A DNA stretch of 64,000 nt from Eledone cirrhosa. Taxonomy: Eukaryota. The notes under the pieces are model-generated. The model was given only the letters and a program-made list of their open reading frames with translations, did no database searches and was not told the DNA's origin. The stretch spans positions 355,694,001-355,758,000 of the forward strand of contig OZ024740.1 of NCBI GenBank assembly GCA_964016885.1. Reading direction: 5' to 3'. Both the position numbers and the translations under genes were made by a program. Below are positions 7,400-53,179 of the stretch, in pieces; within the stretch, counting starts at the first letter, position 1; every line of letters starts with the position of its first letter.

Positions 7400-7829
7400 T
7401 GGATTGTGTGTTTTGGTTGTTGTGGCACCAGATTGCCATACAGGGTGGGGGTTTTTTTTTTTTTTGAGGCAGCAACATTATGGAAAGGAGGAGAACAGAT
7501 ATAGAGCATGTCTAGCTTTCCATGCTTATGTGCCCGAGTTGCACAGGGCAAGAGAGGTACCTTGAGCATGTGGACTGTGGGGAGGGAAGAAGTATGCAAG
7601 TTGGACATGGATGAGGTGAGTGGGGTATTTAGTTGGTGGGGGTGGGATATTAAGCCTGGGAACATTGAATGGGAGAGGGGTAGGGAGATTGGTGCAGACA
7701 AGTGTCCTCTACATGTTTGCTTCATCCTGTGTATATGGGAAGGAAGGTTTTCTGCAGTACATCATAACACCAGTGATCTCAATCCTGTATCATTTCTCCT
7801 GAGAGGTTTAATTGTTCAAGGCTATCTTT

Positions 7830-8317
7830 GATCACTTCATGCCAATCTTTCCTAGGTCTTCCTCTTCCATAGCTTCCACCAGCCTTGAGTAACATGCAGC
7901 TTTTAATACAGCTGTCATTCTCCATGCGATTCACATGTCCATACTCCTACAATCTCCTTTCTTACACATTGCATCTGACCCCTCTTATGCTGTTTTTCTC
8001 TCAGTTCATTGACACTTGACCGTTCATGCAAACCACTATTACACAGCTATTGAAGTATGCAAGCTTCATTTCTTGCCAATCTTCTGCAGTGCTCAGATCT
8101 CACTTTATGCAGCATTTCTGTTTGTACACAAGCATCATACAATCTGGTTTTCATTTTGATGAATAAACCCGTTGTAGTTAGCTGAGGTAGTAGCTCCCTG
8201 AACTTTCTCCACCTCATCCTCGCTCTGATTACTGTATTTTCAGAACACACCTACACAGCTAATTTGGCCACCCAGGTAACAGAAGCTATCAACTACTACT
8301 ACGGAGCCGCCTGAGCC
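7830..8317 (-). mobile_element. RTE LINE 3' fragment
   Basis: CSENTVIRARMRWRKFRELLPQL...RLYDACV...RRLARNEACIL matches the C-terminal part of the intact ORF. Confidence 0.88.
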
Positions 8318-9114
8318 TTTTATAGAGTGATGTGCTGCTGGTTGTCGAACTTGGTGGTGAATTGTTGACCCCCCCCCCCCCACACACACACACCTTGTTT
8401 TTTCTTTCTCTCGCTCTGGTCGTTATATTTTCCTACCAATAGATAATTGTATTTATTATATGTCTTTATAGTTTCATTCGGAAAGAATTGTGAACAATGT
8501 GTAATGTTAATTTTACAACTGTGAATAAAATATACTGTCAATGTTTATGCTGGAAGATTTTAGAATGATTGGCTTTGTTTCATAGAACCAGAAGCAGTTT
8601 TAGGTGAGTTGGTATGAAAACAATAGGATTCAGAAACAGAAATATAGGATTGGTATCAAAAGAATTACGCCAAAACAAAAACATCAATTATATCTAGAAC
8701 TAATATAATGGTACAATAAGAACTAAAGCAGTCAGTCACATGACCTAATTTAGTCATATTGGTGAGTTTAAGATCTAATGACCTTATTTCTAACTAAAGT
8801 GTGAGAAATTAGTAAGCCAAGTGTTGGTAAAGTGCTTCATCATTTAGTTTAGTTTAATGTAAAGCAACAGAAATTAAATAATATATAATGTGGAAAGTGA
8901 TATATGTAATAATAATAATAATGGTTTCTGATTTAAGCACAAGGCCAGCAATTTCGGGGAAGGGTAAAGTTGATTACATTGATCCCCAGTTTGTGACAAT
9001 TTCATTACTTTATTGAAGGATGTAAGGAGGAGGAGAAAAACAACAACACAAGTGGTTGTTTCCTCTACGATTTATGGTTTGCATTACTGATAACCTATGA
9101 AAAGATGAAGAGAA

Positions 9115-11104
9115 ACAATAGGGCCATTAGAGACAAAAGACTAGCATGGAATGCTTGGAAAAATGGTGGGAGTAGAGAAGGATACACAGCCGCTAAGAGA
9201 GAAGCTAGACGTCAGGTGTACTTAGCACGCAGGGAGGCTGAGATTAGGAGGTTTGCCAATGTTCTGCGTCGGGAAGATCAGAGACGTGCGGTGTTCTGCA
9301 TTGCAAGGCAGTGTGTCAGTGCAAATTAGGATGTTGTTGGAGATAAATGTGTCCGGAATGATGCCGGTGTACTTAGTGTCACGAATGATCAGAAAAAGGA
9401 GGCCTGGAAATGTCATTATGAGAGACTGACGAATGTGGAGAACGAATGAGAGAGAGAGAAATTACCCCCAGTAGATCCGACAGAGAGACCAGCTATTGAG
9501 ATTGATGAATATAGGGTCCAAGAGGCGATTAAGGAAATGAAAAATGGTAAGGCCGCTGGACCGTCAGGGATAGTTGCTGAGATGTTGAAGGCATCAGGGG
9601 ACATAGGCACTAAACTGGTTGCACGCATCATCAATCAGGCTATATATGGTGGTGTCATACCCAAAGACTGGTGCAGCAGTATTCTCAAATTGCTACAAAG
9701 GTAGAGAGGAGCAATTATAAGGGCATAAAACTGATGGCTCATGAAAGTGGCAGAAAGGATATTAGCGCAACTAATTAAAGAACGGGTCAAACTAGATGAG
9801 ATGCAGTTTGGTTTTGTGCCTGGGAAAAGTACAATGGATGCCCTCTTCTTAGTAAGAAGTTCTTAGAGAAGAATAAGCCACTATACTTAGCTTTTGTTGA
9901 CCTAGAGAAGGCCTTTGATAGGGTACCCTGATCTGCCATCTAGTGGTCCCTAAGGATGCTGGGTGTTGATGAATGGCTTGTGAGGACAGTGCAAACTTTG
10001 TACAGAGGTGCTGTCAGTAAAGTGAGGGTAGGAATGGAGGAATTCCAGATACAAGTAGGAGTACATCAGGGATCAGTCCTCAGTCCGCTCTTGTTCATTA
10101 TAGTCCTCCAAGCCATAACTGAGGAGTTTAAGACTGGCTGTCCATGGGAACTTCTCTATGCTGACGATCTGGTTCTTATAGCAGAATCAGTAGAAGAGCT
10201 AGAGAATAAATTCTGGCTATGGAAACAGCAGTTGGAAGCAAGAGGACTGAGAGTGAACCTAGCTAAGACAAAAGTGTTGAGTAGAAAAGAGGACAAAACT
10301 CTGATTCCGTCAGGGAAATGGCCATGTTCGATATGCAGAAAAGTAACTGGCATAAATCCTATAAAATGCACATAGTGCAGATCTTGGGTACACAAGAGAT
10401 GTAGTGGGATAGCAGGCAAACTAACAGGTAGGGAGAAATACGTATGAAGCAGATGTACAGGGAAATTTGACAGTAGAAGTCGCATTGATAGACACATTTT
10501 TCAAATGCAGGTGGGTGCTATAGAAGTGGTTGATAGCTTCCGGTACCTAGGTGATCAGATTAGCATGGGAGAGGAGTGTTCCGAGGCCATAGTATCTAGA
10601 ATAAGGATGGGTTGGAAGAAGTTTAGGGAGCTGCTTCCTCTGCTGACGAATAAGGGTTTCTCCCTGTGTACGAAAGGCCATTTATATGATGCCTGTGTGA
10701 GGTGCGCGATGCTGCATGGTAGTGAGACATGGGCAGCAACTGCAGAGGATATGCGACGGCTGGAGAGAAATGCTCCATTGGTTGTGCAATGCCAATATGC
10801 GTAAACGGCCAAGCATGGATGTGTTGAAAGAGAAACTGTGTCTGAGAGGCATAAATTGTTATGTGTGGGAGAGGAGACTGCGATGGTATGGACATGTGAT
10901 GTGTATGGACGTGATGCAGTTGAAGGAAGACGTAGTAGTGGAAGACCACAAAAAACATGGGCGGAGGTGGTGAGAGCAGACCTCAGATCACTGAAGCTCA
11001 CGGTGGAGATGACAAAGGACGGTGACAAGTGGAGAGATGCTGTGCTGAATAGGACCCATCCCACCCTTGCAAGCAGGGAAAAGAGGACGTAAAATGATGA
11101 TGAT
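9115..11104 (+). mobile_element. 5'-truncated, decayed RTE LINE (related subfamily)
   Basis: Fragments AKREARRQVYLARRE, GVHQGSVLSPLLF, ELLYADDL, PSGKWPCSICRK, FRYLGD, RLRWYGHV with many stops and frameshifts. Short 3' end with (GAT)n tail. Confidence 0.93.
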
Positions 11105-13276: not shown

Positions 13277-14982
13277 ATATGTACGCACACATCTATATAT
13301 ATATATATATACATACGCACACATCTATATATATATATATACATACGCACACATCTATATATATATATACATACATACGCACACATCTATATATATATAT
13401 ACATACATACGCACACATCTATATATATATATACATACACACGCACACATCTATATATATATATACATACACACGCACACATCTATATATATATATACAT
13501 ACACACGCACACATCTATATATATATATACATACATACACACGCACACATATATATATATATACATACATACACACACACATATATATATATACATACAT
13601 ACACACACATATATATATATATATATACATACACATATATATATATACATACACACATATATATATATATATATACATACATACATACATACACACACAC
13701 ATATATATATACATACACACACATATATATATATACATACATACATACATACACACACACATATATATATATACATACATACATACACACACACATATAT
13801 ATACATACATACACACATATATATATACATACATACACACACATATATATACATACATACACACACATATATATACATACATACACACACATATATATAT
13901 ACATACATACACACATATATATACATACATACACACACATATATATACATACATACACACACATATATATACATACATACACACACATATATATATACAT
14001 ACATACACACACATATATATACATACATACATACACACACATATATATACATACATACATACATATATATATATATACATACATACACACATATATATAT
14101 ATATACATACATACACACATATATATATATATACATACATACACATATATATATATACATACATACACACATATATATATATATACATACATACACACAT
14201 ATATATATATACATACATACACACATATATATATATATACATACATACACACATATATATATATATACATACATACACATACACATATATATATACACAT
14301 ACACATATATATATATACATACACATATATATATACATACATACACACACACATATATATACATACATACACACATATATATACATACATACACACACAC
14401 ACACATATATATACATACACACACACACACATATATATACATACACACACACACACATATATATACATACACACACACACACATACATATACATACACAC
14501 ACACACATATATACATACATACACACACACACACATATATATACATACATACACACACATATATATACATACATACACACACACACACACACATATATAT
14601 ACATACATACACACACACATATATATATACATACACACATATACATACACACACATACATATATATATATATACATACACACACATACATATATACATAT
14701 ATATACATACACACACATACATATATACATATATATACATACACACACATACATATACATATATATACATACACACACATACATATACATATATATACAT
14801 ACACACACATATATATACATATATATACATACACACACATATATATACATATATATACATACACACACATATATATACATATATATACACATACACACAT
14901 ACATATATATATATATATATACACATACACACATACATATATATATATATATATACACATATACATATATATATATATATAT

Positions 14983-15015
<33 letters not shown>

Positions 15016-16290
15016 CATACACACATACATATATATATATATATACATACACACATACATATATATATATATATACATACACACATACATATATATATAT
15101 ATATACATACACACATACATATATATATATATATACATACACACATACATATATATATATATATATACATACACACATACATATATATATATATATATAC
15201 ATACACACATACATATATATATATATATATACATACACACATACATATATATATATATATATACACATACACACATACATATATATATATATACACATAC
15301 ACACATACATATATATATATATACATACACACATACATATATATATATACATACACACATACATATATATATATACATACACACATACATATATATATAT
15401 ATACATACACACATACATATATATATATATACATACACACATACATATATATATATATACATACACACATACATATATATATATATACATACACACATAC
15501 ATATATATATATACATACACACATACATATATATATATATACATACACACATACATATATATATATATACATACATACATATATATATATATACATACAC
15601 ACATACATATATATATATATACATACACACATACATATATATATATATACATACACACATACATATATATATATATACATACACACATACATATATATAT
15701 ATATACATACACACATACATATATATATATATACATACACACATACATATATATATATATACATACACACATACATATATATATATATACATACACACAT
15801 ACATATATATATATATACATACACACATACATATATATATATATACATACACACATACATATATATATATATACATACACACATACATATATATATATAT
15901 ACATACACACATACATATATATATATATACATACACACATACATATATATATATATACATACACACATACATATATATATATATACATACACACATACAT
16001 ATATATATATATACATACACACATACATATATATATATATACATACACACATACATATATATATATATACATACACACATATATATATATATACATACAC
16101 ACATATATATATATATACATACACACATATATATATATATACATACACACATATATATATATATACATACACACATATATATATATATACATACACACAT
16201 ATATATATATATACATACACATATATATATATATATACATACACACATATATATATATATATACATACACACATATATATATATATACAT

Positions 16291-16321
<31 letters not shown>

Positions 16322-16324
16322 CAT

Positions 16325-16355
<31 letters not shown>

Positions 16356-16822
16356 CATACACACACATACATATATATATATATATACATACACACACAT
16401 ACATATATATATATATATACATACACACACATACATATATATATATATACATACACACACATACATATATATATATATATACATACACACACATATATAT
16501 ATATATATATACATACACACACATACATATATATATATATATACATACACACACATATATATATATATATACATACACACACATATATATGTATGTGTGT
16601 ATGTATATATATACATATATATACACACACACATATATATACATACATACACACATATATATACATACATACACACATACACACATACATACACACATAC
16701 ATATATATATACATACACACATACATATACATATATACATACATACATACACACACATATATACATACATACATACACACACATATATACATACATACAC
16801 ACACACACACATATATATATAT
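13277..16822. repeat. Giant compound (AT)n/(AC)n microsatellite, about 3.5 kb
   Basis: Almost continuous alternating purine/pyrimidine with blocks of higher-order 22-30-bp units such as ACATACACACATACATATATATATATAT. Confidence 0.98.
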
Positions 16823-16860
16823 TACCTTCTTGCTAGCTACCCAACACCCCTCCCTCCCAC

Positions 16861-16956
16861 CCCCCACGCACCACCATTGCTATTACGTGGACCAATCATA
16901 AAACAGAGCCCCCACGCATCACCAGTATTATTACGCGGACCAATCAGAAACCAGAG
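16861..16956 (+). promoter_or_regulatory. Tandem 48-bp duplication in the LINE leader, each unit with a CCAAT box
   Basis: cccccacgca...ggaccaatcataaaacagag and cccccacgca...ggaccaatcagaaaccagag; CCAAT at 16892 and 16940. Promoter function is inferred. Confidence 0.5.
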
Positions 16957-17065
16957 GCCTATACTATCGCTTGCCTGGTTGCCTTTCGATATATGATGGA
17001 TGGATGGACTGCGGAATCCTGGAGAGTGGAGGTGAGAGAGAGAAAAATCTGGACGCTCAGCGACA

Positions 17066-20000
17066 ATGCCAAAGATAAAGACAAATTCACCTCTTGGACG
17101 AGAATGCGAGCACTCCTCATTGTTTCGACCGCGGACGGCTAACATAACCCCATCGCCCCCCGCCCCTCACCACCCCCAACCCCCAAACGCAATCCAAAAC
17201 TTCAGAGTTGGTACCATAAATGTAGGCACCCTAAAGGGTCGCGCTAACGAGGTTGTAGAAATGCTTGAACGTAAGGAGGTCGATGTTTGTTGTATTCAAG
17301 AGACCAGGTGGAGGGGTGGGTCTGCTAGTTTCATTGAGGGTAAAAAACGATGTTATAAGCTTTTCTGGGTGGGAAACGACGATGGGCTGGGTGGAGTAGG
17401 AATCATGGTAGCAGAAAAGTGGGCAGATAAGATAATAGACGTAAATAGAGTGAACGACAGAATAATTAAAATACGACTTGTCCTCAATAGAACTACGGTG
17501 ACAGTAATATCTGCGTACGCACCCCAATCGGGACTGCCCGGCACTATAAAAGACAGATTCTATGAGACACTGATGCTAACTACCTCCCAAATATCCGACA
17601 GTGACTATATAATTATCGCAGGCGACCTAAATGGTCACGTTGGACAACATTGTGACGGCTACGACGAAATCCATGGAGGCTATGGGTTTGGTACTAGAAA
17701 TGAGGAAGGCTCCAGAATCCTGGAATTCTGTGATGCAAATAACCTAACTATCTGTAACACTAACTTCAAAAAACGTGACAATCACCTGATCACCTATAGA
17801 TCCGGGGAACACACAAGCCAGGTAGATTATATCCTTACCAGAAGACGTGACAGAGTGTCTGTTGTAAACACTAAATCCCTCCCCCATGAAGAATGCACCT
17901 CCCAACATAGACTGATAATTAGCGACCTCATAGTCAGGACGAGACGTACTCGACAACAGAAGAGGACTATCCTCAGGAGGAAAATATGGAAGCTAAAGGA
18001 CCCCACAGCCAGGAATAAATTTCAAAGCATATTACTTGATGCTTTCGACAGTAAGGAAGAACATTTAGAGTCGGACAATATAGAGGGAGAGTGGGAATTT
18101 CTGAAAGCAAACCTGCTGTTGGCGACAGACGAAGTCTGTGGCTGGAGCAGGCCTGTAGGCAGGAGGAGAGTAACATGGTGGTGGAACAGTAAGGTGGAGG
18201 GGTCAATTAAGGCCAAAAAGCAGGCTTGGAAAGTATGGCGGGATGGGGGAAGTAGAGAGGACTATCAAGTGGCCAGGAGGGAAGCTAGGAGACAAGTGTA
18301 CTTAGCAAGAAGGGAAGCTGAGGAAAGAAAGTTCAAGCATGTTCTACAACGCGATGACCAAAAACGTGAGGTGTTCAGGATTGCTAGGCAATGCGGCAAG
18401 GAAAACCGTGATATTGTCGGGGAGAAGTGTGTACTAAACGACGATGGCACACTTGCCATCACCGACGCTGATAAGAAGGTAGCTTGGAAGTGTCACTATG
18501 AAAGGCTACTAAATGAGGAGAATAAATGGGAGAAAGGCAGTCTCCCCCATATCGACCCAATAGAGGGACCAGCAGTGTTAGTCGAGGGGAGTATAATAAG
18601 TAAGGCAATCAAGGATATGAAGACGGGTAAGGCGGCTGGGCCTTCGGAAATAGTTGCTGAGATGCTGAAGGCATCTGGCACGGTGGGACACACCATGGTC
18701 ACCCGCATAGTTAACCAAGTCGTACAGAATGGGGTTGTTCCGAAGGACTGGCATAGCAGCATCATCGTTAACTGTTATAAGGGTAAAGGAGACGCCCTAG
18801 ATAGGAGTAACTATAGAGGCATTAAATTAATCGACCAGGTCATGAAGGTCACGGAAAAAGTAATAGCGCAACTAATCAGAGAGAGAATTGACCTAGATGA
18901 AATGCAGTTCGGGTTTGTGTCAGGCAAAAGTACCACAGACGCTCTTTTCATAGTACGACAACTACAGGAGAAGTACCTAGCTAAAGGTAAACCCCTCTAC
19001 TTAGCTTTTGTCGACTTGGAGAAAGCCTTCGACAGAGTCCCCCGCTCCATTATCTGGTGGGCTCTTAGAAAACTAGGCGTTGACGAATGGCTTGTGAGGG
19101 CTATACAAGCCATGTATAAAGAAACAGTCAGCAAGGTTAGAATTAACAACGAATATAGTGAAGAGTTTAGCGTAAAAGTTGGCGTCCATCAGGGCTCTGT
19201 TCTCAGCCCACTACTATTTATTATTGCCCTTCAGGCTATAACAGAGGAGTTCAAGACAGGCTGCCCATGGGAACTCCTATACGCAGACGACCTGACACTC
19301 ATAGCGGAATCAATGGCCGAGCTAGAGAAGAAATTCCAAACATGGAAGCACGGCCTAGAGTCAAAAGGACTTAAAATTAACCTGGCTAAGACCAAAGTAC
19401 TAGTTTGTAGGAAAGAAAACAAGGCGGCGGTCCCTTCTGGGAAATGGTCGTGCTCGGTGTGTAGGAAAGGCGTAGGTAGAAACTCCATTTTATGTCCTAA
19501 ATGCAAAGTATGGGTGCATAAAAGATGTAGTGGGATCACAGGTAAGCTAACTAAGAACATAGATTTTACATGTGGCCGGTGCTCTGGTGCAATAAGTAGC
19601 AGCAAGTGCCCACAAACTACTAGCTCTTTCAATTGCGCAGAGGGTTCTATAGAAATAGTGGACAGCTTCCGTTACCTGGGCGATAAAATCAGCAGTGGAG
19701 GAGGGTGCTCTGAAAGTACTGTAGCTAGAGTCAGAACTGGTTGGAAAAAGTTCAGAGAGCTTATACCACTATTAGCTGCTAAAGGGTTCTCACTAAAAAT
19801 GAAAGGCAGGTTGTACGATGCCTGCATACGAACAGCAATGCTGCATGGCAGTGAGACCTGGGCATTGTGTGCAGAGGATATACGCAGACTAGAGAGGAAC
19901 GAAGCTTGCATGCTCCGCTGGATGTGTAACAGTAATATACGTGAACGGCAAAGCATAAACGAACTAAGGAAAAAATTAGAGATAAGAGGGATCAGATGTT

Positions 20001-20236
20001 GTTTACTCGAGAGAAGGCTACGTTGGTACGGTCACGTGATGCGCATGAAAGTCGATAGCTGTATAACAAAGTGCAGGGCAATAAAGATAGACGGTAGCCA
20101 CGGAATAGGCAGACCTAGAAAAACCTGGGACGAGCTGATAAACTCCGACATCACACACTTACACCTCTCCAAGACAATGTCACTGGACCGAGACCTTTGG
20201 CGGTACTCAGTAACAGAGAAGACCCGCCTTACCTAA
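17066..20236 (+). CDS. LINE polyprotein: AP-like endonuclease plus reverse transcriptase with embedded PHD-type zinc finger (1056 aa)
   Basis: Endonuclease motifs GTINVGTL, CIQETRW, SAYAPQ, GDLNGHVG, QVDYIL, SQHR. RT motifs NYRGIKL, QFGF, FVDLEKAFDRV, GVHQGSVLSPLLF, YADD (19280-19291), FRYLG. RTE-type C-terminus RLRWYGHVMR...GRPRKTW. No stops or frameshifts. Confidence 0.96.
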   Translation: MPKIKTNSPLGRECEHSSLFRPRTANITPSPPAPHHPQPPNAIQNFRVGTINVGTLKGRANEVVEMLERKEVDVCCIQETRWRGGSASFIEGKKRCYKLFWVGNDDGLGGVGIMVAEKWADKIIDVNRVNDRIIKIRLVLNRTTVTVISAYAPQSGLPGTIKDRFYETLMLTTSQISDSDYIIIAGDLNGHVGQHCDGYDEIHGGYGFGTRNEEGSRILEFCDANNLTICNTNFKKRDNHLITYRSGEHTSQVDYILTRRRDRVSVVNTKSLPHEECTSQHRLIISDLIVRTRRTRQQKRTILRRKIWKLKDPTARNKFQSILLDAFDSKEEHLESDNIEGEWEFLKANLLLATDEVCGWSRPVGRRRVTWWWNSKVEGSIKAKKQAWKVWRDGGSREDYQVARREARRQVYLARREAEERKFKHVLQRDDQKREVFRIARQCGKENRDIVGEKCVLNDDGTLAITDADKKVAWKCHYERLLNEENKWEKGSLPHIDPIEGPAVLVEGSIISKAIKDMKTGKAAGPSEIVAEMLKASGTVGHTMVTRIVNQVVQNGVVPKDWHSSIIVNCYKGKGDALDRSNYRGIKLIDQVMKVTEKVIAQLIRERIDLDEMQFGFVSGKSTTDALFIVRQLQEKYLAKGKPLYLAFVDLEKAFDRVPRSIIWWALRKLGVDEWLVRAIQAMYKETVSKVRINNEYSEEFSVKVGVHQGSVLSPLLFIIALQAITEEFKTGCPWELLYADDLTLIAESMAELEKKFQTWKHGLESKGLKINLAKTKVLVCRKENKAAVPSGKWSCSVCRKGVGRNSILCPKCKVWVHKRCSGITGKLTKNIDFTCGRCSGAISSSKCPQTTSSFNCAEGSIEIVDSFRYLGDKISSGGGCSESTVARVRTGWKKFRELIPLLAAKGFSLKMKGRLYDACIRTAMLHGSETWALCAEDIRRLERNEACMLRWMCNSNIRERQSINELRKKLEIRGIRCCLLERRLRWYGHVMRMKVDSCITKCRAIKIDGSHGIGRPRKTWDELINSDITHLHLSKTMSLDRDLWRYSVTEKTRLT

Positions 20237-20631
20237 ATATATAGTAAAACCTACTACAGTCAGTAGGCATCTCTAACAAAATACACCCCGTCCCACCACC
20301 ACCACCCCCACCCCATCCACACCACCCCGTCCTATGTAAAGTTATGTTGGTGCCGCGCCATCCAGGCTGAAACAAATGAGATCGTGTAGGTGTCACGACA
20401 AAAAAACACACAGTCCACGCTGTAATGTGGCCGTGTAGGCAACACGGTAAAAACCTCCCAGCCCCACACTGTAAATGTGGTTGGTGTTAGGAAGGGCATC
20501 CAACTGTAGAAAACCCGCCAGACAGTCCTATGCGAGCAAGACAATCACTCTTGCCTCAAGTGGGAATACCCCGGTCTAAACCCATGCAAGCGTGGAACAC
20601 GGACGTTAAACGTTGATGATGATGATGATGA

Positions 20632-20750
20632 TATATACACATATATATATACACATACATATACACATACACATATATATATACACATACATATACACAT
20701 ATATATACATATACACACATATACATACGTATATATACATATATATATAT
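20632..20750. repeat. (AT/AC) microsatellite, right flank of the LINE
   Basis: Same composition and polarity as the 13277-16822 array. Confidence 0.9.
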
Positions 20751-23039
20751 GACACACCTAGTCAATTTTCTTTTTGAACTTTTCAAGTGTGTATTTTCAT
20801 TTCATTATCAATGTAGCAAGTCTAAAGGGAGTTATGTTGAAATGTTGATGATTATCTTCTTGCAGCCCTAAACAGCGTAGCTGGTGGCACTACTATGTAC
20901 TGTAGCATCTTGGTTGAAAAAACACTGATCTATGTTGTTGCTCTTTTAATCATCTTAATCAGTAGCAAAACCATCATCGTCATTAAAATGATCAAAACCA
21001 TCATTCTTATCATCAGGCGACTACACAAACATAATGTTGATTTTAATATACTGGAATAGAAGCCCCCATTGCCTACTTCCAATTACCTCTATTCCAGCAA
21101 GTAAAAATCACACTCAACATCATAATCAAAAGAATAACAATATTAACTTAAGCTGTAGTATGAAGAAATTAGCTACATGTAACTTATTCAGAGACCTACT
21201 TTAAAGTAAGCTTGCAAAGGAGCTTCGAAGCAACTGCTTGATTGAAATCAGTATTGAAATCAATTTTTTTCAAAATGCAGACCATACATCCTAAATTTTA
21301 AAACAATACACCACAATAACAAGCTAAACGTATCTAGATGGCCAATTAACTCTTGATATATTTATCTAAAAAAGTATTCCATCATAATTTTATGTAAGAC
21401 CTTTCAATTAAGTTATGATTCAAACACTAGCTTAATAATGAGAATGTTATATTACTAAATCCCTTTGCTCACTTATTTCTGAGAGCGTTGTGTGAGCAGA
21501 ATCCTCAAATACTCCTAGCAGGTCTTGTCAGAAGCAACCAACTCCAATTGATCTGGCTAGATCCCAAGCAAGACCAGCCAGGCTCAGGGATATAATGCAA
21601 CTAACTTACTCAGGGTCTACCCCTGGGTCACCTGCCAGTTGGTTTTGCCCATAAAATCTGTCCAGTCATTCTAACCACATGCCCATAATATTGGAGCTAC
21701 AATCTCTCAGTTTGGAGAAGTAGCAACTTTGCCTAGAGAGACTCTGAACTACACATTTTAAGAATTCCTATTTAAATTAAAATCTTCCTACATAATTTCA
21801 TATAACCCAGCAATTTTGTGGAGGAGAAAATCGATTAAATCGACCCCTGTAAGGATGAAAAGCAAAGCTAATCTCAGCGGGCTTTGAACTCAGAACATAA
21901 AGGGACATAACTATATGCTGCGAAGCATGGAGTCTGATACTTTACCGATACTGCCAATCCACCGCCCTGTTATGAAGTTAATGAAATAATAAATTTAGTA
22001 AATCCTAAATTCTTGATTAATTGATTCAAATAGTGTATTTCATTGGAAATATGGTAAAAAAGGGTTAAATCCCATCAAGTAAACTATATAATGTAATATG
22101 CTCTATCAAATAGCATACATTTTTAAATTCTTTGAAATAAACAAGGTATCCATCCATTCACACTAAACTACAATAATCTGTTATAAAGAAATATGGTATA
22201 ATTCTAAAGATGCTTTGTTTGCAATTTTAAAACAATGACATTTCCCAGGTAAATCTTTGAGCATAAAAATCCAGTAGACAAATAGAAGAAATTTCAAGCT
22301 TTATTTATAAACAATAACACTATTGAGTGAAGATGTAATAAAATCTAATTGTTAGGGTTTAACATTTAGGTTTGTATTGCGTATCATCTATTATGTTAAC
22401 ATCAAGATGATAGAAAGCTTGGTGGATGTTTAGCAATATTTAGCAAATGATGTCCTTTCATCATTTTAGGTTCTATAAAATAAGTAACATTCAAGTACTG
22501 GTGTGATGGTGGTGATATATGCATTTGTACTAACTACACAATTTTGTTAAAATTCAATACCATAGCTAATAAAGAAATATGAAGAATTATTCATTTAACT
22601 CTTTCATTATTATATTCCTAATGAAAGACACTGCCCATGATTTTCAAATCCTTTGGAGAGATTACATGATATAATTTACTTTCTCATTATTAAGTTGTTG
22701 CTTGCGGTTTTTACATAGCATTATGATGGAAGGATTTTAAATAAATATAAACACCTAAAATAAACAACTTTGTACCACAGAACCAGGGGTGGTTTTAGGT
22801 GGTTTAATATCAAAATTTAAAATGGAATATACCTTTACTGGACATTAACATGGCATTGTATACAGCTGTATCATGGCAGCCATATTAGATACATACATTG
22901 ATAAATATGATAAAACAAAAAGAAATATAGCAGAGTATGAAATATAAAATTCTTCCATACCTTTATGATCTAGATTTGATGTGACATTGTATGCAGTTGT
23001 ATCATTGCAGCTATATTATACATTTGAGTACATTGCATA

Positions 23040-23420
23040 TAGTTGCTAAGTTCACTTTGAGGCCTTTCAATTCCAGATTTTGTTGAGTCTACTTAGGGTA
23101 ATCCCTCTTTTTCCTCATTCAAAAATATCCCATAATTTCTATGCTTCTTATTTTTCAGCATCAGTAAGGGCAAGTACACCACTTTCTGAATACACTTCTC
23201 CCCAATGATATTGTAATATTTTCAAGCACACTTTTTTGCTATTTAGAACACTTTACACCTCTTATCTGCACATTGCAGAACATATGCATCTTCTTAATTT
23301 CTGCTTCTCCACCCAGCTAAGTCTAGCTGATGCCTAACATCTTTACCAGTTATCTGGTATGGCTCTCTGCCTCCCCCATTCTTCCAGTCTTTCCAGACCT
23401 ACCTCATAGTTTTAACTCTT
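23040..23420 (-). mobile_element. Old RTE LINE fragments
   Basis: Minus strand reads QNLELKGLKVNLA and IIGEKCI...GVLALTDAEK, matching the intact ORF. Confidence 0.7.
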
Positions 23421-24061
23421 AACATCTGTTCATGCTCAGAGTTGCTGAAGCAGAGAACAAACTACCTGCATCAGTTGTTAGCTGTCAGGACATTGCATCC
23501 TTCAAAATTTCCATGCTTCCCAAAATTCGCCAACACTGCACCTGATATTCTCCCTCCATACACACACATGCATGTGTGCATGTGCATATCATGACCCATA
23601 CACTGTTCACTTTCCTGACATTTTGTACATTATATTATGTACTACACATGCACCTTTGATAAATTGTAGTGCACCTGAGCACTGTACACAATTTCCATTA
23701 TTATGTACCACATTAAACTGTATTAGCAGGACATTCTATAACAGAATCACATAAAAAATATTAAAGACTTTACTTTAGTTTACTGCAAATTTTCACGATG
23801 ATCTGTTCACTAGTAAAAATACTATAAACAATTGAATTAAACATAATTTTAGATATCTTCTATCAAATCATAACAAGATGTTAAGAATTAATCACTTTAT
23901 CTACACAATTATTCCACTACCAAGCCTCCTACCATCTCCCAGCAGGATTGCTAGGACACTTCCATCAACCAAATATCTTGTTTGCAACCCAAACACTGAT
24001 AAGAGAACCACCTATAATCATTCCAGGAACCAACATTCCACTATGATCCATTATATATATA

Positions 24062-48432: not shown

Positions 48433-51400
48433 ATCATCATCATCATTTAACGTCTATCTTCCATGCTTGCATGGGTTTAGACAGGAATTGTCCCGCGTGA
48501 GGCAAGATTGGTTGCCTTGCTCATATAGGACTGTCTGGTGGGTTTTCTAGGGCTGGATGCCCTTCCTAACACCAACCACGTTTACAGTGAGGACTGGGAG
48601 GCTTTTACCTACATGGCCACATTACAGCATATAGTTTTTTTTTTTGTTTTTTTTTGTCGTGACACCTACACGACCTCATTTATTTAGGACTGGGTGTTGT
48701 GGCCCCAACATAACTTTACGAAGAAAGGGGTGGTGTAGATGGGGGTGGGGGTAGAGAGATGGGGGTGTATTTTTGGTTAGGAGGTGCCTACTGACTGTAG
48801 GTTTCACTTTGTACTTAGGCAAGGCGGGTCTTCTGTATTGCTGTATAGCGCCAAAGATCTTGGTCCAGTGACATTGTCTTGGAGAGGTGTAAGTGTGTAA
48901 GGTCGGAATTTATCAAATCGTCCCAGGTTTTTCTGGGTCTGCCTACTCTGTAGCTTCCATCAATTTGATCGCCCTTCACTTTTTTATATAGCTGTTGTCT
49001 TTCATGCGCATCACGTGACCGTACCAACGTAGTCTTCTCTTGAGTAAACAGCATCTGATCCCTCTTATTCCTAATTTCTCAGTTTATTTATGCTTTGCCG
49101 TTTACGTATATTACTATTACACATCCAACGGAGCATGCAAGCTTCGTTCCTCTCCAGTCTGCGCAGATCCTCTGCACACAATGCCCATGTCTCACTGCCA
49201 TGTAACATTGCTGTTCGTATGCAGGCATCATACAGTCTGCCTTTCATTTTTAGAGAGAAATCTTTAGCGGCCAATAGTGGTATAAGCTCTCTGAACTTTT
49301 TCCATCCCGTTCTGACTCTAGCTACTGTACTTTCAGAGTACCCTCCACCACTGCCGATTTTGTCACCCAGGTAACGGAAGCTGTCCACTATTTCTATAGA
49401 ACCATCTGGGCAATGGAAGGAGCTAGTATACTGTGGGCACTTGCTACTACTTATTGCACCCGCCACATATAAAATCTATGTTCTTAGTTAGCTTACCTGT
49501 GATCCCACTACATCTTTTATGTACCCATACTTTGCATTTGGGACATAAAATGGAGTTTCTGCCTACTCCTTTCCTACACACTGATCATGGCCATTTCCCA
49601 GAGGGGACCAGTGCCCTATTTTCCTTCCTACATACTAGAACTTTAGTTTTAGACAAGTTAAATTTAAGGCTTTTGATTCTAGGCCATGCTTCCAAGTTTG
49701 GAATTTCTTCTCTAGTTCAGCCATTGATTCAGCTATGTGCATTAGATCATCTGCGTATAGAAGTTCCCATGGGCGGCCGGTCTTGAACTCCTCTGTTATA
49801 GCCTGAAGGGCAATAATAAATAGGAAGGGGCTAAGGACAGAGCCCTGATAAACACCAACTTTTACGCTAAATTCTTCATTATATTCGTTGTTAATTGCTG
49901 ACTGTTTCTTTATACATGGCTTGTATAGCTCACACAAGCCATTCATCAACACCTAGTTTTCTAAGAACCCACCAGATAATCGAGCGAGGTACTCTGTCAA
50001 AGGCTAAGTGTAGGGGTTTACTTTTAGCTAGGTACTTCTGTAGTTGTCGTACAATGAAAAGAGCGTCTGTTGTACTTTTACCTGACACAAACCCAAACTG
50101 CATTTCATTTAGATCAATTCGCTCTCTGATTAGTTGCACTATAACTTTTTCTGTGACCTTCATGATATGGTCAATTAATTTAATGCCTCTATAGTTTCCC
50201 CTATCTCGGGCATCTCCTTTACCCTTGTAGCAGTTAATGATGAGGTTGCTATGCCAGTCATTTGGTATAACCCCGTTCTGTATGACTTTCCGGGAGACCA
50301 TAGTGTGTCCCACCGATCCAGATGCTTTCAGCATTTCAGCAACTATCTCCAAAGGCTCAGCTGCTTTGCCCGTCTTCATATCTTTGATTGCCTTATTATA
50401 CTACCTTCAACTTGCACTGCTGGTCCCTCTATTGGATCGATTTGGGGCAGATTATCTTTTTCACACTTATTCTCCTCATTTAGTAGCCTCTCGTAGTGAC
50501 ACTTCCAAGCTATCTTCGTATCAGTGATGGCAAGTATGCCATCATCATTACGGACACACTTCTCCCTGACAATATCACAGTTTTCCTTGACACATTGTCT
50601 AGCAATCCTGAACACCTCACGTTTTTGGTCCTCGCATTGTAGAACATGCTTGAACTTTCTTTCCGCTGCTTCCTTTCTTGCAAGGTACACTTGTCTCCTA
50701 GCTTCCCTCCTGGCCACTTAATAATCTTCTCTACTTCCCCCATCCCGCCATACTTTCCAAGCTTGCTTTTTGGCCTTGATTGACTCCTCCACCACACTGT
50801 TCCACCACCATGTTACTCTCCTCCTGCCAATAAGTCTGCTCCAACCACAGATTTCATCTGTTGCCTTCAGCAGGTTAACTTTCAGGAATTCCAACTGTTC
50901 CTCTATGCTGCACGTCTCTAATTGCTCTTCCTTACTGTCAAAAGCATCAAGTAGTATGCTTTTAAATTTGTTACTGGCTGTGGGGTCCTTTAATTTCCAT
51001 ATTCTTCTTCTCAGGGTAGTCCTCCTCTGTTGTCAAGTATGTCTCGTCCTGACTATGAGGTCACTAACTATGAGGCTATGTTGGGAGGTGCATTCTCTGC
51101 GGGGGAGGGATTTAGTGTTTACAACAGACACTTTGTCACGTCTTCTGGTAAGGATATAATCTATCTGACTGGCGTGTTCCCAGTCTATAGATGATCAAGT
51201 GATTGTCTCGTTTTTTGAAGTTTGTGTTACAGATAGTTAGGTTATTTGCGTCACAGAATTCCAGAATTCTGAAGCCTTTCTTATTTCTAGTACCAAACAC
51301 GTAGCCTCCATGGATTCCGTCATAGCGGTCACAATGTTGTCCAACATGACCATTTAGGTCGCCAGCAATAATTATGTAGTCACTGTCAGTTATTTGGGAG

Positions 51401-52143
51401 GTAGTGAGCATTAGCGACTCATAGAATCTGTCTTTTATAACGCCAGGCAGTCCAGATTAGGGTGCGTAAGCGAATATTATTGTCACAGTAGTTCTATTTA
51501 GGACATGTCTTATTTTGATTATTCTGTCGTTCACTATTTATGTCAATTACCTTACCCATTTTTCTGCTAACATAAATCCTACTCCACCCAGCCCATTTTT
51601 ATTTCCCACCCAGAAAAGTTTATAGCATCATTTTTTACCCACAATGAATCTAGCAGACCCACCCCTCCACCTAGTCTCTTGGACGCAACAAGCATCAACT
51701 TCCTTACATTCAAGCATCTCTACAACCTCGTTAGGGCGACCTTTTAAAGTGCCTACATTCATGGTACCAACTCTGAAGATTTGGATTTCGTTTGGTGGGT
51801 GGAAGGGATGGGTTGGAGGTGTAGGGATGGGTGAGGGAGACGGGTTATGTTTGCCATCCGTGTCTGAAATAAAGAGGAATCCGTGCATTTTCGTCCGGTC
51901 ACACGAGGTGAATTTATCTTTATCTTTGTCATTTGAGTGTCCAAATTCTTCGTACTCTCCAGAATCCCACAGTCCATCTAGCATATCAAAGGCAACCAGG
52001 TTTAAACTTAAGGAGTGAATAGCCAAGACGGTGGTTTTGTGTAAGAGATTGGTAAGAGAGACGTATAAGCTGCTGAATTATGATTGGACCATCTAATAAT
52101 GGTGGCGAGTGGGGGGGATATGGGGAAGTTAACAAGAAGGTTA
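48433..52143 (-). mobile_element. Near full-length decayed copy of the intact RTE LINE, inverted
   Basis: Minus-strand ORF pieces match the 1056-aa protein end to end (FRVGTMNVGTLKGR, GDLNGHVG, ELLYADDL, FRYLGD, QKTRL). Homologous long 3' UTR, (ATC)n at 48433, homologous leader. Confidence 0.95.
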
Positions 52144-52919: not shown

Positions 52920-53160
52920 CATCATCCATATATGTCACATGCCCCATACCAGTGTAGTCGTCTCTCTTGCACACTATAGCTGATTTTTCATATACTCAAT
53001 TTTTCTCTCCATTTATACCTGCTTTGTTGTGCAAGCACATTACACATCCAACAGAGCATGCTCACTTTATTTTATCACTCCATATATCTTCTGCATCCAC
53101 CACCTGTCTCACTGCCATGCAACATTGCACTTCATACAATGGCATCATACAATCTACCCT
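52920..53160 (-). mobile_element. RTE LINE 3' fragment
   Basis: Minus strand RLYDAI...MLHGSET...VQERRLHWYG-like remnants. Confidence 0.7.
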
Positions 53161-53179
53161 TTGCTAGTGTGTCAAGATA

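Follow-up and report, generated by a model that had tools for sequence, protein, structure and literature searches.

How APE-type LINEs choose the region of the genome into which they insert is largely an open question. The locus described here raises it in a particular form, in that it holds a LINE with a predicted PHD finger inside its reverse transcriptase (RT), and it may be asked what such a finger does within a polymerase. Translation of the window (the whole 64,000-nucleotide stretch of Eledone cirrhosa DNA that was analysed) gives a stop-free frame of 1056 aa at 17066..20236 on the forward strand, which bears out the uninterrupted endonuclease-RT frame reported in a preliminary description of this DNA. 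Pfam places Exo_endo_phos at aa 50-267, RVT_1 at aa 580-780 and PHD (PF00628) at aa 796-839 (Table 1). A model of aa 301-1056 superposes on L1 residues 248-1061 (Z 34.5, rmsd 3.9, 589 aligned), and the last residue of the modelled protein corresponds to residue 1061 of the 1275 in L1. There is no second long frame in the 245-nt UTR remnant, nor was one reported upstream. A search for a host gene around the copy gave zero Pfam matches for 154 of the longer window frames (from 305 candidates of at least 45 aa). Contigs from four runs were placed on the frame during an expression check, and are neither assignable to the 17066..20236 locus nor informative about splicing.

Table 1. Features of the window (positions counted from its first letter; aa numbering refers to the 1056-aa frame)
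Feature	Position	Strand	Remarks
3' fragment of related copy	7740..8341	-	
Decayed copy, second finger-bearing family (50-59% aa)	9123..11065	+	7/8 finger ligands
Alternating TA/CA microsatellite, target tract	13287..16815	.	resumes downstream at 20632-20762
5' UTR remnant, 245 nt	16821..17065	+	other family copies extend upstream of 16821
Open frame, 1056 aa	17066..20236	+	AP endonuclease, RT, predicted PHD finger, thumb and wrist
AP-type endonuclease domain	17213..17866	+	aa 50-267 (Pfam); aa ~43-291 (structure model)
RT core to motif 6, RVT_1 aa 580-780	18803..19405	+	YADD at 19280-19291
RT motif 6-7 loop, aa 780-859	19403..19642	+	variable linker, finger, variable linker
C4HC3 PHD finger (predicted), aa 796-839	19451..19582	+	conserved W794/V803/S807/I808/W816, basic surface
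RT motif 7 hairpin (YLG)	19667..19681	+	polymerase fold resumes
Thumb and wrist-like helical region	19691..20233	+	stops at equivalent of L1 ORF2p residue 1061
3' UTR common to family, ~380 nt	20237..20613	+	
3' tail, six TGA units	20614..20631	+	other copies: 4-9
Older decayed copy, 84% nt identity	48433..52000	-	6/8 finger ligands

The element is a young RTE-type LINE with a finger-bearing RT. It has one frame with AP endonuclease and RT (cf. PMC2887409), its 3' end is a short tandem repeat, and 5'-truncated copies occur. A very short 3' UTR, as described for lepidopteran RTEs (PMC2887409), was not found in the family, where this region is ~380 nt. The 3' UTR is also long in the finger-less RTE of the same genome and in RTE-2_OV (~600 nt; PMC9115989), and a very short one is therefore not taken as a clade-wide criterion. 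In a 31-row tree without named reference elements, finger-bearing rows form one group (83/96), which is united with the local finger-less RTE-like family (93/92) as against two other LINE types.

Mean divergence of the family is 0.22%, and frames of 1055-1058 aa are present in 21 of the 24 other frame-spanning copies, which were chosen for long frames. Staggered 5' ends and TGA tails of 4-9 units are found across 70 loci. Eighteen other copies with the 16821 boundary extend upstream, several by 290-785 nt, across tandem monomers of ~510 nt, which likely hold the promoter of the family. The window copy has none of these upstream monomers and is 5'-truncated within the UTR. The element had been called potentially active; this holds for the family, given its divergence and its long frames, and not for the window copy, from which the 5' monomers and a complete 5' end are missing. 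Both flanks of the window copy are microsatellite, in which a target-site duplication cannot be told from the tract itself; duplicated stretches, candidate target-site duplications, are visible in some copies (L012, L063).

The putative zinc ligands of the finger (C796, C799, C810, C813, H818, C821, C836 and C839; 19451-19582) lie downstream of the post-YADD motif (aa 768-779) and ahead of the YLG hairpin (aa 868-872), and the C4HC3 spacing first noted there was recovered. YADD and YLG are 131 aa apart, whereas two LINE families of this genome that have no finger show 69 and 72 aa. Canonical RTs have only a short linker at this site. PF00628 is matched along its full length at 28.1 bits, the cut-off being 24. 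C1 and RING identities were rejected, their scores being under the respective Pfam cut-offs. The predicted finger has a pLDDT of 79 alone and 85-93 within the full protein model, and 42 of its 50 best structural matches are titled PHD, plant homeodomain or PZP; the Z of 6.5 for the top match is middling, as expected at 58 residues. A direct PDB search with a finger-less linker gave no match. Two of the checks suggested at the outset, profile search and structure prediction, returned a PHD, and residues 796-839 are a predicted PHD finger on which fold class and C4HC3 spacing agree.

None of the eight ligands varies in any of the 119 aligned homologues (41-57% identity), and the C4HC3 pattern is therefore not due to chance; position 834, the aromatic two before the last ligand pair, is F/Y in all 119 as well. 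When the 120 best matches were collected with the RT core alone as query, 107 had the strict pattern, eight an altered spacing and four a partial finger, while one (P0420, a short frame) had none. The conservation score of the finger (0.66) is close to that of the surrounding RT (0.67-0.71), against 0.32 for the linkers. Between the two local finger families synonymous sites are saturated, yet 8/8 ligands are kept, six of them by different codons. Conservation holds across hundreds of clusters, for ligands and non-ligand residues alike, and the same finger residues are kept from cnidarians to fish. The 150 scored copies were chosen by identity over the finger. Judged from the alignments, the finger is under purifying selection, and the decayed copies of the window, with seven (9123-11065) and six (48433-52000) of the eight ligands, agree with its earlier reading as a family trait. 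It could be supposed that the finger is an old, tolerated insertion with no part in transposition, since many RTE families function without one and a single RT-core match of the 120 best lacks the loop. The invariant ligands and the conserved non-ligand residues over hundreds of clusters, between linkers that vary on both sides and against saturated synonymous sites, make this very improbable.

The finger-in-RT architecture belongs to a wide animal lineage and is not special to the E. cirrhosa genome. BfRTE-a02 (Branchiostoma floridae) and NvRTE-a01 (Nematostella vectensis), which the authors of PMC2887409 file under the RTE clade (additional file 2), each encode one APE-RT frame in which this C4HC3 finger recurs at the same place, their closeness being judged by reading the sequences, outside the tree. 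The main text of that paper has no match for zinc, PHD or cysteine, and the finger is in print there as a sequence, unremarked. It had been guessed that similar insertions may already be catalogued, and both databases and this 2010 supplement do contain finger-bearing RTEs. A description of an RT-internal PHD was not found in the literature covered, outside which lie Repbase, Repbase Reports, Dfam and most subscription journals.

A profile aligns R2Bm residue 672 ten positions past the motif-6 lysine, and by this alignment the finger sits where R2 has insertion 6a, in the stretch of the RT that separates motifs 6 and 7. According to PMC10499050, insertion 6a recognises target DNA on the upstream side, and nicking is blocked when it is deleted. 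The two elements are alike in having an insertion at this site, which in R2Bm contacts target DNA upstream of the nick. They differ in that 6a is a short loop, called R2-specific, which reads the bases of one rDNA site in an RLE-type element, whereas the LINE studied here is an APE-type element with no fixed site, and its insertion is a 44-residue putative zinc finger.

A finger that shares its loop with the DNA-binding 6a of R2 may be a plain nucleic-acid clamp, holding target DNA or template RNA for priming or processivity, with any regional bias coming from the endonuclease, open chromatin or selection. Its net charge of +10 (median +8 over 120 rows) is in keeping with this, as is the lack of the acidic pocket residues discussed below. 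The finger would perhaps substitute for a missing C-terminal zinc domain: the protein ends level with L1 residue 1061 of 1275, and the finger-less local RTE has C-terminal C2H2-type fingers instead. We regard a clamp as possible, if somewhat doubtful, in view of pocket residues that a generic clamp would not need. W794, V803, S807, I808 and W816 align with Y, V, A, I and W of Pygo, which are K4me cage and T3 residues in PMC2726290. W816 is near-invariant (98%). In the strict-pattern rows it is kept in 104/107, S/A at 807 in 104/107, V803 in 90/107 and Y/F/W at 794 in 83/107. The invariant tryptophan and further cage residues of an H3K4me2/3-reading PHD (as defined in PMC3241642 and PMC2726290) are thus present.

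Four of the five Pygo methyl-lysine cage positions are kept, and the acidic ones are missing. Known histone pockets are ringed by acidic residues. Where Pygo has D352 and E360, the finger shows no conserved D/E, and because of this absence it was not filed as an H3K4me reader; E360 is required for H3 binding in Pygo (PMC2726290). The signature of H3K4me0 readers is absent too, K793 and an aromatic 794 preceding C796 and the cage tryptophan being present. A complex predicted for the finger and the first 30 residues of the histone H3 encoded by this genome scored 0.01, in a model that used no alignment and cannot represent methylation, and it speaks neither for nor against binding. The Pygopus PHD (PMC2726290; PDB 3zpv, 4up0, 2xb1) is the best fold match (Z 6.5, rmsd 2.6, 53 aligned), and ATXR5, ORC1b and PHF23 tie with it within 1. 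The Pygopus finger is acidic, with D352 and E360, whereas that of the LINE is basic, lacks both and has shorter loops.

The missing acidic residues would also suit a ligand other than a basic tail, and the fold matches include the non-histone binders MLL4-TET3, MLL4-ASXL2, PHF2-VRK1 and Pygo-BCL9. The finger might then bind a non-histone host protein (a chromatin or transcription factor, or a DNA-methylation partner), or else a second copy of the RT, as a tether or to assemble a complex, and the site bias described next would be equally explained. This is improbable in our judgement: residues constant from cnidarians to fish are a better fit to an invariant ligand, such as histone or DNA, and no partner of this kind was indicated by any analysis.

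Insertion sites were compared at equal GC in repeat-masked flanks of 5 kb, a CpG o/e <0.4 being scored as low; flanks with <800 unmasked bases were left out (7/40 for family 1, 3/20 for family 2, 8/40 for the finger-less RTE and 14/80 for random sites). Low-CpG flanks were found in 19/33 copies of family 1 and 10/17 of family 2, or 29/50 (58%) when pooled, against 4/32 in the finger-less RTE (Fisher p 6e-5), a contrast that comes in part from a deficit of low-CpG flanks in the control itself. Random sites were low in 23/66 cases (35%; p 0.015 against the pooled finger families), and this modest excess is not significant against the second random set alone (17/37 low; p 0.29); about 40% of finger-family copies are in DNA that is not low in CpG. 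The flank contained a further copy of the lineage at 23/40 and 11/20 finger loci, 3/40 control loci and 10/80 random sites. The ratio of CpG to other C/G mutation is 3.5x and 4.6x in the finger families, against 1.5x, 2.0x and 1.4x in three finger-less LINE families. Counted on singletons, however, the CpG ratio is 1.0 for family 2, which is attributed to recurrent mutation, 80% of its CpG sites being already mutated.

In octopus, 5mC lies on the bodies of broadly expressed genes, with none on transposons (PMC9476566); the methylated state of the present sites is deduced from CpG loss. The search of the window frames, which gave no gene around the copy, counts against a gene-body setting. The link of finger and bias is a correlation, in which two related finger families are set beside a single RTE control for the flanks and three controls for CpG loss; the families are unlike also in their endonuclease, their tail and their age, and selection after insertion is another possible source. 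A CpG bias in both finger families and in none of the three finger-less ones nonetheless argues against a plain clamp, and the CpG-poor flanks and fast CpG loss lend indirect support to the targeting role put forward in the preliminary description. Purine/pyrimidine-alternating 3' flanks were found in 36/59 and 24/38 finger-family copies; at random positions their frequency is 8.4% (21.8% after AT). Microsatellite targeting by the finger was rejected, such flanks occurring also in 24/29 copies of the finger-less RTE. Among random regions, those with low CpG have fewer TA tracts (108/706 tracts), and the microsatellite preference therefore opposes the CpG bias.

We give about an even chance to the reading in which the finger tethers the RT to target chromatin and so biases insertion to CpG-depleted, likely methylated gene-body domains. 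As in established LINE biology, the endonuclease would nick the target, and the TGA-repeat tail, through its last AT, would pair with a TA-type tract and prime reverse transcription. The finger would face upstream target DNA, like R2 loop 6a; its basic surface could hold nucleosomal DNA, and its Pygo-like half cage could take the methyl-lysine of some histone tail. Promoter H3K4me3 fits methylated domains poorly, and a gene-body mark is therefore the better guess. Tail and endonuclease would then choose the local site, a TA tract, and the finger the region. More tentatively, an ancient RTE lineage of cnidarians, molluscs, amphioxus and fish may have grafted a Pygo-like methyl-lysine reader into loop 6a, with the finger reading a gene-body mark on nucleosomes and steering target-primed reverse transcription into methylated, constitutively expressed genes. 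On this bolder view a LINE polymerase would read chromatin directly, and loop 6a would be a general, exchangeable targeting socket of non-LTR RTs.

If the tethering reading is correct, the pile-up of these elements in methylated domains of a large genome would be explained. A reader inside the polymerase, at the place that serves R2 in recognising its target, would be a small and well-bounded module in an abundant and very young family. That the motif 6-7 loop of an RT appears to tolerate a folded domain bears also on the retargeting of retrotransposon-based gene-insertion tools.

PHD fingers are encoded by other LINEs, CR1 and L2, for which a targeting role has been proposed. Theirs sits outside the polymerase domain, either within ORF1 or at the N-terminal end of the frame, and as of PMC4120745, which cites Kapitonov and Jurka 2003, there was no functional study of LINE-encoded PHD fingers. 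CopiaMBD and the chromoviruses (PMC6673714) are likewise retrotransposons with a captured epigenome reader, and spider CopiaMBD accumulates in methylated gene bodies. These are LTR elements, in contrast, with an MBD or chromodomain beside the integrase, and MBD binding has been shown, whereas the LINE finger is known from sequence and a model. Two further relatives for comparison are octopus RTE-2_OV and a polymorphic RTE of O. bimaculoides (PMC9115989), both intact, likely active RTE LINEs with microsatellite-associated ends. Unlike the present element, RTE-2_OV has a C2H2 finger and a microsatellite 3' UTR, which match the finger-less control family; identity with it is unlikely, and on the description in PMC9115989 it is probably another family. 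For the RTE of O. bimaculoides, named RTE8BF6ALB in the VCF, membership of the finger-bearing lineage is possible.

The 1056-aa endonuclease-RT frame of the RTE-type element (17066–20236) translates without a stop, and the C4HC3 finger at 19451–19582 has its ligands placed with the spacing claimed in the preliminary description. On this frame a full-length PHD match (aa 796–839) lies above the Pfam curated cut-off, with the endonuclease at aa 50–267 and RVT_1 at aa 580–780; C1 and RING identities were rejected, as both models score under their own Pfam cut-offs. The RT linker is indeed longer than usual: YADD to YLG spans 131 aa, and 69 and 72 in two LINE families of the same genome that lack the finger, indicating that about 60 residues have been inserted. 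Just before YLG, aa 869 (19670–19672) is Cys in 95% of homologues and Arg in this octopus lineage.

The full-length structural model (mean pLDDT 88; finger 85–93) matches L1 ORF2p residues 248–1061 with Z 34.5; no residues remain for the C-terminal domain present in L1, and the protein ends without a counterpart. The expected PHD fold was recovered: the isolated finger (pLDDT 79) matches PHD entries, with fly Pygo on top (Z 6.5, level with three other structures). In a profile alignment, R2Bm residue 672 falls ten positions past the motif-6 lysine, in the linker of the insertion. R2 carries a DNA-binding insertion at this same RT site, between motifs 6 and 7; this insertion 6a, which has been termed R2-specific, reads upstream target DNA through His673 and Lys675, and nicking is blocked without it (PMC10499050). 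By analogy, the finger may face target DNA as 6a does.

PHD fingers of LINEs are already known from CR1 and L2 (PMC4120745), but there they lie in ORF1 or at the N-terminus, whereas that of the element lies inside the RT. Reader-guided integration is likewise known, for chromoviruses and CopiaMBD (PMC6673714), as is the R2 insertion. The RT-internal PHD finger is real; no description of one was found in the literature outside Repbase, Dfam and subscription journals, although sequences and automatic domain calls are already public.

The finger is a family trait, as had been proposed. Seven of the eight ligands can be traced in the decayed copy at 9123–11065 and six in that at 48433–52000. A search with aa 700–1000 returned 746 proteins; with the window protein added to its 120 best hits, the finger was recognized by pattern in 120 sequences and by eye in the remaining one. 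In the alignment, made without the fused gene model P0002, the ligands are invariant in 119/119 rows, and conservation of the finger (0.66) equals that of the flanking RT (0.67 and 0.71), which the linkers (0.32) do not reach. Because the query for this set included the finger, a second search used the RT core alone: of its best 120, 107 have the strict pattern, eight altered spacing and four partial or frameshifted fingers, and one short protein (P0420) lacks the loop, motif 6 running straight into YLG. Four homologues (P0416, P0438, P0444 and P0474) have additional residues between the His and the following Cys. Between family 1, that of the element, and family 2, a second local finger-bearing family, synonymous sites are saturated and the finger is 64% identical, yet all eight ligands are kept, six by different codons. 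That the finger is a passenger, which has to be weighed against this constraint, is very improbable. Matches at E 1e-10 or better number 852 (50%-identity representatives, rows not individually checked). The proteins from the aa 700–1000 search include carriers from Octopus bimaculoides and from a catfish, Neoarius; the finger is also borne by BfRTE-a02 of amphioxus and NvRTE-a01 of Nematostella (supplement of PMC2887409). One ESM Atlas cluster is automatically named PHD/RT, with Mollusca its commonest taxon.

A search of the genome with aa 739–895 scored 150 places, all 100% identical and on the first two contigs only, from 75,834 first-look candidates, which is not a copy number. The 70 family 1 loci fetched (63 distinct) are 96.6–99.5% identical to the window copy, with staggered 5' ends and mostly 4–9 TGA units at the 3' end. 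Copies differ from the site majority by 0.22% on average, and 21 of 24 other frame-spanning copies, chosen for long open frames, retain a frame of 1055–1058 aa; this indicates a very young family. Eighteen other copies extend upstream of 16821, where the window copy starts, into tandem monomers of about 510 nt; in the seven loci noted (L033, L034, L035, L050, L058, L059 and L067) every monomer contains a (CT)n(AT)n tract. Rodent L1 promoters are likewise 5' tandem monomers, and the family 1 promoter may by analogy sit in these units. The element had been called potentially active; this stands for the family, but the window copy, coding-intact and without upstream monomers, is likely not self-transcribing.

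TA-type tracts occur at 36/59 and 24/38 copies of the two finger-bearing families (background 8.4%). They also occur at 24/29 copies of the finger-less RTE with a CAT tail, mostly (TATG)n, so the preference is not the work of the finger, and microsatellite targeting by it was rejected. This control family resembles the published description of RTE-2_OV (PMC9115989). At several copies (L006, L030) the TA tract is long on the 5' side and short or missing on the 3' side, an asymmetry that may reflect expansion during or after insertion. Some lie tail-to-tail, in or beside the repeat tail of an opposite-strand copy (L018/L046, L040, L139, L178), and L004/L043 and L005 are independent insertions 2 Mb apart in one 18-nt minisatellite family.

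Features of the window and of the control locus
Feature	Location	Strand	Remarks
TA/CA microsatellite	window 13287–16815		3.5 kb, 32-nt higher-order period; directly upstream of element
Old lineage fragment	window 23087–23443	−	
Old lineage fragment	window 52943–53161	−	
Finger-less RTE control	L087 4700–8056	−	C-terminal C2H2-type fingers, microsatellite-rich 3' UTR, CAT tail

Regional preference was assessed in 5 kb flanks with simple and interspersed repeats masked (low, CpG o/e < 0.4), after loci with little unique DNA were dropped (family 1, 7; family 2, 3; control, 8; random, 14). Low-CpG flanks were found at 19/33 family 1, 10/17 family 2, 4/32 control and 23/66 random loci, with equal GC; for the pooled finger families p is 6e-5 against control and 0.015 against random. 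The two random sets disagree (6/29 and 17/37), the second alone being indistinguishable from the finger families (p 0.29). Only 108/706 TA tracts of the random regions fall in low-CpG ones, so a TA-seeker without regional preference is expected near 15%, as is the control. Within the copies, the hit rate of CpG relative to other C/G is 3.5 and 4.6 for the finger families and 1.5, 2.0 and 1.4 for three families without the finger. Counting singletons alone, the ratios become 3.4 and 1.0, versus 1.3, 1.6 and 1.3; the 1.0 of family 2 accompanies repeated hits at 80% of its CpG sites. Lineage copies are also clustered, with another one, old or young, in the flank of 23/40 and 11/20 finger-family loci, 3/40 control and 10/80 random loci. 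The window agrees with both patterns, with CpG o/e of 0.17–0.49 in 14/16 bins and five further lineage pieces besides the element. In octopus, genes with broad expression are methylated along their bodies and transposons are not (PMC9476566); on this pattern the CpG-poor flanks, older than such young insertions, are likely gene bodies, although no host gene was identified in the window. Selection after insertion is a possible cause of the bias.

LINE integration involves an AP endonuclease nick, priming by tail-target microhomology and 5' truncation. Here the endonuclease would nick the target and microhomology prime reverse transcription, while the finger would hold the RT on the chromatin that makes up methylated domains, by contacts with DNA and perhaps with a methyl-lysine. 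We give such tethering about an even chance; the link from finger to bias compares two related finger-bearing families with few controls, its main weakness. The finger has a net charge of +10 (median +8 across homologues), and it could be a plain nucleic-acid clamp, the CpG bias having another origin, which we consider rather unlikely. Binding of a non-histone partner is less probable still.

The Pygo K4me cage comprises W366, Y341, D352, V350 and A356; I357 and E360 are required as well (PMC2726290). On alignment to Pygo2, W794, V803, S807, I808 and W816 correspond to Y, V, A, I and W; within the RT-core-only set (n=107) the pocket residues are W at 816 in 104, V at 803 in 90, S/A at 807 in 104 and I at 808 in 98. 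Methyl-K4 readers combine a cage tryptophan with an acidic site, and K4me0 readers are defined alongside them (PMC3241642). By those criteria the finger has the tryptophan without the acidic site, and it is therefore not classed as an H3K4me reader, nor does it qualify as a K4me0 reader; no conserved equivalents of Pygo D352/E360 were seen in aligned homologues, and no acidic cluster ahead of the first Cys of the finger. A methyl-lysine pocket next to a DNA-binding face is a reading of the sequence that would use both cage residues and charge. The proposed chromatin or targeting module has the RT-internal PHD, purifying selection and site bias in its favour, and is assigned to neither H3K4 reader class.

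Among three database models (P0002, P0072 and P0405), P0002 of O. bimaculoides fuses the RT-PHD to a LETM1 domain and a catfish model is named slc22a21, both likely intronic copies absorbed into gene models; one of the three is filed in a bacterial symbiont bin, likely as host contamination.
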